Positions 26,673 to 30,634 of a DNA stretch of 64,000 nt are shown one piece after another. The position numbers were made by a program, and so were the translations under genes. Source of the stretch: Roseibacillus sp. (lineage in GTDB: Bacteria > Verrucomicrobiota > Verrucomicrobiia > Verrucomicrobiales > Akkermansiaceae); contig JBPOGI010000008.1 in NCBI GenBank assembly GCA_051251855.1, positions 1-64,000 of the forward strand, read 5' to 3'. Below the pieces are notes generated by a model. The model was not told the origin of the DNA, searched no databases, and was given only the letters and a program-made list of their open reading frames with translations. How positions within the stretch are numbered: the first letter of the stretch is position 1; every line of letters starts with the position of its first letter.

Positions 26673-27011
26673 CTATTCAGCTCTGGCCATTTCGGGAACA
26701 GTCCCGACAGCGTAGACATCTTCGATTGCTTGCAGTGGAATACCTCTCAGTTGAGTTTCAGCAGCAACTAGGGAGTTGCGTAGATCCCAACGATTCTCTA
26801 ATTGCCCTAGGCGAATCTCCAAATTGGTAACATCACGATCGTGCTCTCGGATCCGACGCTCCACCTGCTCAATCTCGCGAACCACGTTCAACTGTTGATT
26901 CTTCATCACAGTATGAAAGACACCCGTTGCACCCAACGAAATAGCGGTGAGCACCAAGAGGGCAAACACTCCCGGATTCAAACTGGCTCTCTTCTTTTTA
27001 TTTTTACTCAT
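26673..27011 (-). CDS. ftsL: FtsL-like bitopic coiled-coil protein
   Basis: Basic N-terminus, one TM, heptad coiled coil; lies between rsmH and ftsI. Confidence 0.65.
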   Translation of the reverse strand: MSKNKKKRASLNPGVFALLVLTAISLGATGVFHTVMKNQQLNVVREIEQVERRIREHDRDVTNLEIRLGQLENRWDLRNSLVAAETQLRGIPLQAIEDVYAVGTVPEMARAE

Positions 27012-28066
27012 CGTCTTTTAGCGAGTCGTAGCTTTGCGCTTCGCGCGCGGGTATTACGGGCGAGCTCGGCATCTCCTGCCGAAATCGCTTTGCGAGAAAT
27101 CAGGTCCCAAGCGAGCTCAGGATTTGGACGTGGCTCAGGCCACTCAGGACGGTCGATAAACTCAACACTCCCCTTTTTTAAAAATTGTTTAACGAGGCGA
27201 TCCTCCAAACTGTGAAAAGTAATCACCGCCAAGATGCCACCAGGCTTCAGAACATCTTGCGCCGCCTCGAGACCAGCTGTCACCGAGTCCAACTCCGTAT
27301 TCACCGCCATCCGCAACGCTTGAAAAACTCGCGTAGCAGGATGCTTACGCCCCCGTCCGCCCATCGTCTTCTCAACACACCCCGCCAACTGCAAAGTGGT
27401 AGTAAACTCTTGCTCTTCACGAGCCTTCACAATTGCCGCTGCAATTCGGCGCGACGCCTTCTCTTCTCCATAGAGAAAGAAAATGTTCGCCAACTCTTCA
27501 GCCGATCGCGTGTTCACATAGTCCGCAGCGGTTTCCCCTGCCGACTGATTCATCCGCATATCTAGCGGACCTTCTTTTTGAAAGGAAAACCCGCGCTCAG
27601 CCTGATCGAGTTGCCAAGATGACACCCCCAAGTCTAACAAGACCCCATCGACAGACTGCGCGGGCACTACCGAACGCATTTCCGAAAAATTTCCCTGCTC
27701 AGCACGAAAGCGATCTCCAAAGACCTCCAGTCGTTTTCCAGCATAGGCGAGGGCATCGCTATCGCGGTCCATTCCGACGACTTGCGCACCCGACTCTAAC
27801 AGACGCTCGCTGTGACCACCGCCACCGAGCGTTCCATCAAGAAATAGTTTATCCTCTGTAGGCTCTAGTCCCGTAAGAGTCTCATCTACCAAAACAGGTT
27901 CGTGATAGAACTCACGCTCATTAACTTCCCCACCCTGTTCGGTAGCAGCAGAGCTTTGAAAAACGTGACCCCGCCATTCCGGCACCACCGATTCCACCGT
28001 CCGTCGTATAACGGCAAGGCAGTCGGAGAAGTCGGCAAATGCCGGAATGAATGCGGGTGTCAGCAT
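27008..28066 (-). CDS. rsmH: 16S rRNA m4C1402 methyltransferase (start uncertain: ATG 28066 or GTG 27997/27988/27985)
   Basis: HEPVL, DGTLGGGGHS, DLGVSSWQLD, PLDMRM, HPATRVFQALR, FHSLEDR and RSAKLR motifs. Confidence 0.95.
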   Translation of the reverse strand: MLTPAFIPAFADFSDCLAVIRRTVESVVPEWRGHVFQSSAATEQGGEVNEREFYHEPVLVDETLTGLEPTEDKLFLDGTLGGGGHSERLLESGAQVVGMDRDSDALAYAGKRLEVFGDRFRAEQGNFSEMRSVVPAQSVDGVLLDLGVSSWQLDQAERGFSFQKEGPLDMRMNQSAGETAADYVNTRSAEELANIFFLYGEEKASRRIAAAIVKAREEQEFTTTLQLAGCVEKTMGGRGRKHPATRVFQALRMAVNTELDSVTAGLEAAQDVLKPGGILAVITFHSLEDRLVKQFLKKGSVEFIDRPEWPEPRPNPELAWDLISRKAISAGDAELARNTRARSAKLRLAKRR

Positions 28067-28599
28067 GTTTTTCAGTGTTCCAATCCTGTTTTTATCCAGT
28101 AAATCCAGTAGCTCGAGGGAGGTCCGCGACCTGCCCCTCACGCAAAATTTTGAAATAACGGAAAGCTGCCACCCCAAGCCCACGCTCGCACAGCGTCGCA
28201 AATCTCTGACCGGCAAGGCAGATGGCTTGCGCCGCGCGAAACAGCAGGTTTTGGGGTGACAACAGTGTTCCAGTTATCCAGTTATCCAGTAAAGTCGTCG
28301 GGAAACTGCCACCACTCCGGGCCTCACGAAGGCCCTCTCCTGACTTGAAAGTCCTTTTGGCAAGGCAGTCTTGCCGAGAGGAGGCTCTCGATTCGCGCCG
28401 GAGTGGCAGCATTGTTCCAGTGTTCCAGTTATCCAGTAAAGTCGTTGGGAAATCAGACAGGAGGACGCCGCCACCCCAAGCCTCGCAAAGGCCCGTTTTC
28501 AGCAGAAAGCACCTTTCGGCAAGGCAATCGTGCTGAGTCAGGGTTTTCGCTTGGTTTTGAGGTGACGACATTGTTCCAGTGTTCCAGTTATCCAGTAAA
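27961..28599 (-). ncRNA. Candidate array of four structured RNA units, each preceded by a 31-nt direct repeat
   Basis: Repeats at 28569-28599, 28410-28440, 28263-28293 and 28073-28103. Invariant TGCCTTGCC (minus) at 28518-26, 28359-67, 28212-20 and 28013-21. Each unit has its own complementary closing stem. Confidence 0.6.
28073..28599. repeat. Four dispersed 31-bp direct repeats (consensus cattgttccagtgttccagttatccagtaaa)
   Basis: Two copies identical, one near-identical, one degenerate in the middle; periods 159, 147 and 190 bp; internal 8-bp periodicity of ACTGGA on the minus strand. Confidence 0.95.
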
Positions 28600-28615
28600 T
28601 TCATTCTTAAGCCCC

Positions 28616-29083
28616 TTACCCAAAGTCGACTGAGTCGTAGAGGTCTTCCAAAATCTGCGCTTCCTTCGCGCGCAGTTCTTCCACATTCTTCGGAGCCACC
28701 AAATCAAAGGCTGCTCCCCGTCCAAAAAGGTGTACTGACTCCCCCGCTTCGAATCCGTGAGCACTCGCGGTCTTTTTTGGCACCGCCAACTTGCCCTGGT
28801 CATTCAAAGTCACTGACTCGCTGCCCGAGTACACCGCCTGCTTCTGCGCATTTCGCGTTCCGGCAGGAATGGCCTCATTAGAAGCAATCGATTCAATAAC
28901 AGCCTCGAAGGCCTCTTGGGTCATCGCCCGCAGAACCGGAACTTTCAGATGCTTCCACTTCAAAAGTCGCAACTGAACCGTCTGTCCACTCGCAGGGCGC
29001 CAAGCGGAAGGCACGGAAACTCGATACTTACTATCAAGTTTATGCTCAACAACGCCTTCAAGGCTCTGGTTTGGTACACCCAC
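28616..29083 (-). CDS. mraZ: Division/cell-wall cluster transcriptional regulator MraZ (divergent; GTG start assumed)
   Basis: EHKLDSKYRVSVPSAWR and VTLNDQGKLAVP (two AbrB-like repeats); first gene of the dcw cluster. Confidence 0.85.
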   Translation of the reverse strand: MGVPNQSLEGVVEHKLDSKYRVSVPSAWRPASGQTVQLRLLKWKHLKVPVLRAMTQEAFEAVIESIASNEAIPAGTRNAQKQAVYSGSESVTLNDQGKLAVPKKTASAHGFEAGESVHLFGRGAAFDLVAPKNVEELRAKEAQILEDLYDSVDFG

Positions 29084-29335
29084 GGTTTCTCTTGGTTCCT
29101 TACGGTGCACAGTAGTACACAATTTGACCCTACACGGTCAATCTCTTTGTTTTCAGTACACTTCGCATTGCTTAACAATCCTTGCTAGCACAATGTTTTT
29201 AAAACTTTTACTTCGTGTCAGCGGATTATTAATAAAACTTAATTAAACTGCTGAACAGCCCACGCAGCGTCAGCATTTGCTCCTCTCTGGCACCCTTTGC
29301 CGTTTCTTTTTTTTAAAACGAGGCCAGCCTTCCCC

Positions 29336-30634
29336 GTGCGCGAAATCCTCTCTGGCTCCGGCCCCTTCCGTCATAATAACGTTCGGCTCTACGCTTGGTT
29401 CACCGTTCTCTATAACGCACGGGCCTACTACCCCATTTTCGCTATTCTCTTCCTCGACCTCGGCCTCAGCCGCGAGCAGTTCCTCACTCTCAACGCGGTC
29501 TGGGCTGCCGCCATCTTTCTACTCGAAGTCCCCTCCGGCGCTCTCGCCGACACCATCGGCCGCAAAAAACTCCTCGTAGCTGCGGGCATCATGATGATTC
29601 TCGAGATGGCCCTCCTCCTCTTTGCCCCTCAAAACGGCGGCTGGGTTCTTCTCATGATGGTCTTCGCCAATCGACTTCTCTCAGGCGCTTCCGAAGCCTC
29701 CGCCAGCGGGGCCGACCAAGCCCTCGCCTACGACACTCTGCAGGAAAAGGGCGAGGAAGAACAATGGGACCACGTTCTCGCCACCGTCATGACCCTGCGC
29801 TCGGCAGGCTTTTTCACAGCCATGATTCTCGGCTCCCTTCTCTACGACCCCTCCATCTTAGCCAAAGTCATTCCAAACCTCGGCGACCTCGATAAGTCCC
29901 TCACTCTGCGCCTCCCCCTCGCGCTTGTCTTTATCCAAGGCATCGCCTGCCTCTTCCTCGCCCTGCGTATGCGCGACATCGAAGACAGCGACGCCGAGCG
30001 CCCCTCTTTAAAGAAAGCCTTTCGCACCACCCTCTCCGCCGGCAAGTGGCTCTTCACTACCCCCCTCGCTCTCATGGTCGTCATCGGTGGCGTGCTTGCA
30101 GACTCCTTCGCTCGCACCTTCGCCACCCTCACCTCGGACTACTTCCGCTTCATCCAAGTCCCCGAATGGCTCTTCGGATTTCTTGGCGCGGGCTTCGCCG
30201 TCGTCGGCATCTTCACCCCCAAGCTCGCCAAGACCCTTTCCCAAAAATACTCCCCACGCACCCACCTCCTCATCATCGTCACCTGGGCCACCGGAGCCCT
30301 CCTCCTCCTCGGCCAAGCTTGGCCCTATTGGGGTATCATCCCCGCGGTCCTCACCATGATGGTCCTCTCATGGACCGACTTTCTCTGCTCGCGCGAGCTC
30401 AACAAACTCGCCGACTCCTCCCAACGCGCCACCATTCTTTCGGTCAAAGGCCTCATCTTCAACCTCGGCTACGGACTCGCTTCTCTTGGATTCGCTGGTG
30501 CTGTCGCTGGCTTCCAAAAGCAAGGCCTCACCGAAAACCAAGCCTTTCAATCCACCCTCCTCTGGCAACCCGCCCTCCTCGCCTCCCTCATTATCGTCTT
30601 CGCCGTCTGGTCCCGCGGCGTCAAACAGCCCTAA
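29336..30634 (+). CDS. MFS transporter
   Basis: LLEVPSGALADTIGRKK motif A; about 12 TM segments. Confidence 0.9.
   Translation: MREILSGSGPFRHNNVRLYAWFTVLYNARAYYPIFAILFLDLGLSREQFLTLNAVWAAAIFLLEVPSGALADTIGRKKLLVAAGIMMILEMALLLFAPQNGGWVLLMMVFANRLLSGASEASASGADQALAYDTLQEKGEEEQWDHVLATVMTLRSAGFFTAMILGSLLYDPSILAKVIPNLGDLDKSLTLRLPLALVFIQGIACLFLALRMRDIEDSDAERPSLKKAFRTTLSAGKWLFTTPLALMVVIGGVLADSFARTFATLTSDYFRFIQVPEWLFGFLGAGFAVVGIFTPKLAKTLSQKYSPRTHLLIIVTWATGALLLLGQAWPYWGIIPAVLTMMVLSWTDFLCSRELNKLADSSQRATILSVKGLIFNLGYGLASLGFAGAVAGFQKQGLTENQAFQSTLLWQPALLASLIIVFAVWSRGVKQP

Follow-up and report, generated by a model that had tools for sequence, protein, structure and literature searches.

A conserved, apparently translated array of tandem hairpins between mraZ and the RsmH domain in Roseibacillus

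The mraW motif, which takes its name from mraW (rsmH), lies at the 5' end of that gene. In leader-ORF attenuators and in translational coupling through a start buried in a hairpin, access to the structured start is gated by translation of an upstream leader, whose peptide may have no importance, and in CRISPR and TIGR arrays repeats alternate with variable units. The mraW RNA motif (RF01746) dates from 2010, when Weinberg et al. listed it as a candidate for a cis-regulatory RNA, and it is assigned to Actinomycetales in the part of its description available to us (PMC2864571). Rickettsia palindromic elements (RPEs) are inserted in frame within coding sequence, according to the accessible part of PMC3733652. 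No mechanism of the mraW motif was found in the literature searched.

We analyzed a window of 64,000 nucleotides from a Roseibacillus sp. genome (contig JBPOGI010000008.1 of assembly GCA_051251855.1, positions 1 to 64,000), in which four units (27957-28599, minus strand) lie between mraZ and the RsmH domain within the dcw cluster (Table 1). Like the mraW motif, this array is positioned at the 5' end of rsmH and is made of long, irregular, covarying hairpins of about 100 nt, with CUUGCC at the centre in the array and CUUCCCC in the motif (PMC2864571, available part). While each alignment row of the motif shows one hairpin in that part of PMC2864571, the array has 2-4 tandem units with a repeated leader, and unlike the motif it forms a leader ORF and the RsmH N-terminus. 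The RF01746 loop CUUCCCC is absent, the array apex being CCUUG(C/U)(C/U), and the host does not belong to the Actinomycetales, the order named in the accessible portion of PMC2864571. The RF01746 gathering score of 50 bits was not reached in the genome, where the best match (14.5 bits) lies elsewhere than the array. The array is mraW-motif-like but, judged by score, loop and host, is not a member of RF01746. RPEs and REPs are likewise hairpin-forming and occur in frame in coding sequence, but these families are dispersed and multi-copy (PMC3733652, available part), whereas the array is present in frame at a single locus, is conserved in position and has an invariant apex; dispersed copies were not found. 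Compared with leader-ORF attenuators, the leader of the array is built from copies of the gated start module; no intrinsic terminator was detected on the minus strand inside the array, and no regulatory codon run was seen. With CRISPR/TIGR arrays it shares the alternation of repeat and unit, but its units are self-paired, orthologous and in frame, lack an adjacent effector gene and contain no unpaired, turning-over spacers. No description of such an array was found in the literature searched, which was without subscription papers and bioRxiv supplements; the translated hairpin array is real and conserved, and apparently undescribed.

Table 1. Features of the mraZ-rsmH region (window positions).
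Feature	Position	Strand	Description
mraZ promoter region	29095..29165	(-)	conserved TTGAC and GTG(T/C)AC (GTGTAC/GTGCAC) boxes, recognized by eye across 8 loci
mraZ	28616..29083	(-)	155 aa from GTG; alternative TTG at 29122; stop TAA 28618-28616
Optional upstream AUG of leader ORF	28602..28604	(-)	11 nt past the mraZ stop
Leader ORF	28092..28604	(-)	170 aa (159 aa from AUG 28571), across units 1-3
Leader 1	28572..28599	(-)	conserved 8-nt ACTGGA(TA/AC) repeats, mostly single-stranded
Hairpin 1	28457..28580	(-)	AUG 28571 at foot; apex TGCCTTGCC 28526-28518
Leader 2	28413..28440	(-)	identical to leader 1
Hairpin 2	28301..28418	(-)	AUG 28412; apex 28367-28359
Leader 3	28266..28293	(-)	3 mismatches
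Hairpin 3	28157..28275	(-)	CUG 28265; apex 28220-28212
Variable linker hairpin	28111..28143	(-)	between unit 3 and leader 4; site of frame shift
Leader 4	28067..28103	(-)	diverged; contains leader-ORF stop TAA 28094-28092
Hairpin 4	27957..28074	(-)	coding; pairs -9..-2 of the rsmH AUG (28066); apex 28021-28013
rsmH	27008..28066	(-)	352 aa; 53-codon N-terminal extension 28066-27908 is unit 4

The Pfam MraZ match to the upstream gene product is weak (E 0.019), and this gene was identified as mraZ by its position heading the dcw cluster. The rsmH product matches PF01795 (E 6e-101) over residues 53-351, and an identical RsmH protein had already been gene-called in the sequence collection. The boxes upstream of mraZ, which are unlike the array leaders, are read as a candidate promoter and a candidate MraZ operator; no sigma-70-like promoter was found in 27850-29350. 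A presence check identified an RNase III gene in the genome, and two Rho-like genes were observed (G000:C9:334517-335740 and C1:49872-50981; 470 and 424 bits, both below the TIGR00767 cut-off). In the same genome, which is 95% complete, CsrA was not found, and the rRNA motif had no match. Genomes of the order commonly carry a second RsmH-family paralogue, which is weaker (G027:C48, G033, G035, G037, G038 and many g5/g8/g13 genomes).

A sequence-only reading of the window had reported four units between mraZ and rsmH, each preceded by a 31-nt direct repeat. The units are real, and the U-rich tails described with them were also seen; the fourth, taken as intergenic, actually encodes the first 53 codons of RsmH. 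Copies 1 and 2 of the 31-mer are exact, while copy 3 carries three mismatches and copy 4 is longer, with eight ungapped mismatches; internally, the 31-mer is built from the 8-nt repeats listed in Table 1. The invariant TGCCTTGCC is present in all four units as reported, but the spacing given for it (42, 42, 42 and 51 nt) was distorted by a misregister in unit 4 (the '51'). In the true register the spacing is equal: counted from the first base of the start-codon position, TGCCTTGCC begins exactly 45 nt downstream in 4/4 units. The proposed closing stems were borne out, except that the one assigned to unit 4 (28040-49/27975-84) is an internal helix, with 28074/27957 as the outer pair.

Each unit consists of a conserved leader and one long irregular hairpin (~40 bp, ~100 nt), and most folds place the motif at the apex or close to it. 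The apex CCUUG(C/U)(C/U) is found in 28/28 units from this and related genomes, the units having been picked by that motif. The sense strand folded better than the antisense strand in 27 of these 28 units (z -2.0 to -6.4), in agreement with the operon-strand preference read from the sequence, and the whole region gave a z of -5.2 on the operon strand. For covariation, the units were aligned as three classes of 12 (long class), 8 and 8. In the long class, which includes window units 1 and 2, 88% of cells were paired and 19/34 pairs had changed on both sides; none of 500 shuffles reached the observed pairing and slid controls gave 39-53%, with structures derived from the same alignments and shuffles that ignore relatedness. 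The 13-bp outer helix of this class was 98% paired and contained four invariant pairs. The unit-3 class (8 units) likewise forms a long helix (86% paired, 22/33 pairs changed on both sides, 0/500 shuffles), and the last-unit class (8 units), which was folded only, showed two-sided change in 10/27 pairs. A covarying hairpin with a 5-nt loop, proposed earlier for units 1-3, was counted on the long class (window units 1 and 2 and their homologues) and not on the unit-3 class; it was only 58% paired and was equalled by 236/500 shuffles. It was rejected for the long class, its bases belonging to the long irregular helix.

The mraZ locus was obtained in eight of nine Roseibacillus genomes and the array was present in all eight; the named relatives that carry it are Roseibacillus. 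Four units were counted in four genomes, three in three genomes, and two plus a diverged last hairpin in one, while a locus of a neighbouring genus (L008) contains a single unit. In L004, the last hairpin is without leader and apex and rsmH is retained. Conservation in relatives, genome-wide dispersal as a MITE/REP family and a match to a known Rfam family had been named as checks on the sequence-only reading. The array proved conserved with covariation, and BLAST together with a covariance model of the units (model R1, built from 28 units but only 11 pairs) gave four copies in the genome, all at this locus. Rfam returned no match at gathering over the window and, at E<=10 over 27800-28800, two chance matches, neither to RF01746. 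Among 150 further genomes of the order, a sample without genera g1 and g9, none was matched by model R1, and in 41 loci of other genera its best match reached only E 0.055 (L087, at the rsmH start). A metagenome scan with the leader pattern yielded 14 loci, which were dropped as chance, since mraZ, rsmH and the apex were absent from all of them. All units compared (27/27) had their nearest counterpart in another genome and not among the units of their own, and in the unit tree the last units and the unit 2s were grouped with support, the others weakly. As judged from these relationships, the units are inherited by position, without turnover.

The array also lies in frame, a feature that the sequence-only reading had overlooked. 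In the frame where the apex is TGC-CTT-GCC, 102-179 codons are free of stops in 8/8 genomes, while each other frame contains 1-9 stops. Spacings between non-last units are multiples of three in 12/12 cases, and six pairwise, frame-blind alignments, not all of them independent, contained indels of 3, 12, 3, 3, 12 and 6 nt, all multiples of three. Under random substitution at the observed load, the frame stayed open in 1-9% of trials per pair. Substitutions by codon position were 37/38/40, 40/43/33 and 60/61/61 in the array, compared with 7/3/64 in the neighbouring mraZ and 13/6/62 in rsmH, and synonymous changes made up 14/72, 10/72 and 13/100 of the changed codons in the array. Since the substitutions are spread evenly over codon positions, the peptide is not under visible selection. 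The leader frame itself is conserved.

An AUG is found at the foot of hairpin 1 in 8/8 loci and at the last hairpin in 9/9, but at internal units in only 2/12, and eight of the ten internal non-AUG start positions are near-cognate codons. The AUG at hairpin 1 lies 29-44 nt beyond the mraZ stop, and an in-frame upstream AUG, after or overlapping that stop, is present in 5/9 loci. Twelve protein clusters match the leader ORF, three of which represent genomes already counted or near-identical ones and nine further contigs. Nearly all of these nine metagenomic ORFs start at hairpin 1, within a gene-called set that is biased because only open frames are called. In five of the nine, the unit-3 start position is occupied by P, W, E, S or Q, and one (P0012) shows by eye an apparent frame change within unit 3. 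The leader frame differs from that of mraZ in 8/8 loci, and on this ground read-through from mraZ was rejected. A translational bypass or fixed frameshift (GGA-stop and a later GGA in L001-L003) was also rejected, as three genomes have an offset of +1, three of -1 and one of 0.

In all loci where the last unit has the motif (8/8), it shares the RsmH frame. Its frame differs from that of the leader ORF in 6/7 loci, and in the seventh a stop separates the two. Fusion of the leader ORF to RsmH was seen in no genome, and a search of 2547 candidates revealed no fused protein at E<=0.01, which is weak evidence. The -10..-1 region of RsmH is paired in 7/9 loci, and in the remaining two the buried element is the AUG itself; L001 and L003 show, by eye, a matching A-U to G-C change in the pairing at the RsmH start. 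The distance from the leader-ORF stop to the RsmH AUG ranges from -7 to 60 nt, and because it varies, coupling of the leader ORF to RsmH would be loose at best.

Other genera of the family carry in-frame hairpin arrays of different sequence at this position. In g15 and g17, the apex is of another type (CUUGG-AGGG), and its distance downstream of the RsmH AUG is 45 nt in 20 of 22 motif-matching genomes and 42 nt in one, with one exception; these loci are the best-scoring rsmH matches and not a random sample. Eighteen of the g15/g17 loci have another unit upstream, the leader of which is related; this unit starts with AUG in nine and CCG in nine and is always closed by a stop. In g15 (L039-L067), we observed a two-unit array with an SD-like apex able to pair with the 16S tail (-8.3 kcal/mol), which reads AUCUCC in place of ACCUCC. 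The genera g5, g8, g14 and g16, which we take to be Luteolibacter/Haloferula-like, carry GGGACAG and GGCUGGUU hairpins in arrays that stay in the RsmH frame throughout and reach about 280 codons. Paired GGGACAG/GGCUGGUU hairpins occur at the rsmH 5' ends of L018-L021 and L069-L083 with spacings of 105, 111 and 216 nt and add about 130-280 codons to RsmH. A motif pair of this kind was also seen in another family (L105). In five complete genomes, 19/23 matches to the motif pattern fell within one cluster per genome. Codon bias in the in-frame arrays of other genera is weak, for example 40/31/48 compared with 20/7/54 in the RsmH core. In g3, presumably Akkermansia-like, an N-terminal protein region of 185-215 aa replaces the hairpins in RsmH (L065:2407-3056(-), L014:832-1482(-), L060:2404-2954(-)). 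It contains a degenerate HUH-like word, and two of three tested regions showed similarity to Y1_Tnp (PF01797) at E 0.026 and 0.26, below the cut-off. Outside the order, the mraZ-rsmH gap is shorter than 60 nt in 14/27 loci. Because model R1 gives no link between these arrays and that of Roseibacillus, we infer their homology from position and design only.

The explanation that we favour, and to which we give about an even chance of being correct, is that the array consists of tandem copies of the rsmH initiation module and acts as a translation-dependent cis gate on rsmH and the downstream dcw mRNA. The module would comprise the conserved leader followed by a ~100-nt fixed-apex hairpin with a start-codon position at its foot, and its tandem duplication would have created the leader ORF. 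Ribosomes would start at hairpin 1, traverse and melt hairpins 1 to n-1, end 17-60 nt before the RsmH AUG or overlapping it, and then re-initiate at the buried RsmH start. At low ribosome flux, the hairpins would refold, and a putative factor (a protein or RNase III) reading the refolded apex or stem could shut off or cut the message, so that rsmH-ftsL-ftsI output relative to mraZ would track translation flux, more steeply with more units. This gate is in line with the covariation of the long helix, a leader frame kept open while its peptide is not selected, AUG codons at the first and last hairpins, the paired RsmH start region, the last unit being out of frame with or stop-separated from the leader ORF, the analogous leader, AUG and hairpin design in g15/g17, and the presence of RNase III and two Rho-like genes. 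It is at odds with the variable stop-to-AUG distance, CCG in place of AUG in 9/18 upstream g15 units, the retention of rsmH in L004 despite a last hairpin that lacks leader and apex, and the apparent frame change in P0012. Moreover, it gives no reason for the retention of leader and apex in internal units, the shuffles behind the covariation leave relatedness in, and the open frame could merely avoid polarity.

Such a guard against polarity is the only part assigned to the open frame if the hairpins form an array of endonuclease (RNase III-type) sites, where cuts would split mraZ from the downstream mRNA or free ~100-nt RNAs. The well-paired outer helix with its four invariant pairs and the RNase III gene fit this explanation, and RNase III is said to control mraZ mRNA in Corynebacterium, as Maeda reportedly published in 2016. 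We consider it unlikely; a cut in hairpin 4 would sever the RsmH coding sequence, and cleavage needs neither the invariant apex nor the AUG pattern. The apex and leader could instead belong to a feedback sensor or binding array that reads RsmH, MraZ or the C1402 state of the ribosome, for instance through internal non-AUG initiation. Leader and apex are conserved at the nucleotide level, including synonymous sites, the internal non-AUG start positions are mostly near-cognate, and E. coli without RsmH shows more non-AUG initiation and less UGA read-through, as stated in the accessible part of PMC2831307. A 10-nt run of the leader also recurs in Roseibacillus 16S near position 308 (L141; 0/60 shuffles), but this was one of eight tests and the identity is probably due to chance. 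Apart from it and the SD-like g15 loop, a search for pairing of leader or apex with 16S or its tail revealed nothing notable, nor did the apex match or complement 16S notably. According to the available part of PMC2831307, RsmH acts on the 30S subunit and not on naked RNA; MraZ boxes are given as GTG(G/T) with 6-nt spacers in the accessible part of PMC12957436, unlike the 8-nt leader repeat. The residues at the unit-3 start position in the metagenomic ORFs and the lack of a CsrA match in G000 also speak against such a sensor, which appears rather improbable.

A tolerated, once-selfish RPE/REP-like palindrome, duplicated in place and in frame only because the message is translated, would have a precedent in the in-frame insertion of RPEs (PMC3733652, available part). 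Loops that differ between genera and the Y1-transposase-like domain of g3 at the same RsmH position, below the cut-off, also point in this direction. The confinement of the four copies to one locus, the lack of matches in the 150 sampled genomes of the order (no g1, g9), the concentration of other genera's arrays at one locus, and an invariant apex and compensatory change beside far-diverged third codon positions make this origin very unlikely. Still more doubtful is a repeat protein with an RsmH extension, in which the peptide would be the functional product. The ORF is gene-called in 12 clusters and the words LLDNWNTGT and CLA recur, but there is no third-position bias, synonymous codons are few, as counted above, and the conserved words are conserved as nucleotides; the leader-ORF peptide matched no Pfam family, and its Atlas matches scored only 0.80-0.81. 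Only the periodicity of repeat and unit recalls a guide array of CRISPR/TIGR type with processing at its repeats, an explanation we find scarcely credible for position-inherited units with self-paired variable parts, flanked by mraZ and rsmH, the last of them coding. Of the two functions suggested by the sequence-only reading, a cis-regulatory element is supported in the form of a structured cis RNA on the dcw mRNA that is single-locus, covarying and conserved, whereas a processed ncRNA array of a guide-like, non-coding form is not, given paired variable parts, inheritance by position and the conserved open frame with AUG retained at its first and at the last hairpin.

Our findings show a module of leader, start codon and fixed-length hairpin that is readable while its peptide does not matter, and they suggest that the long N-terminal 'extensions' of RsmH in the family are RNA elements and not protein domains. 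The array constitutes a natural dose series, with one to four units in near relatives and longer arrays of other hairpins elsewhere, and post-transcriptional control between mraZ and rsmH-ftsL-ftsI becomes testable in the cultured R. persicicus and R. ishigakijimensis. A bolder and unlikely extension is that the duplicated start modules, with AUG at the two ends and mostly near-cognate codons between them, form a multi-stage sensor of ribosome quality or flux, in which the C1402-methylation state or ribosome activity would set RsmH and division-gene output. If true, rRNA modification would feed back on its own enzyme and on cell division, and this feedback would have been rebuilt with different hairpins across the Verrucomicrobiales.
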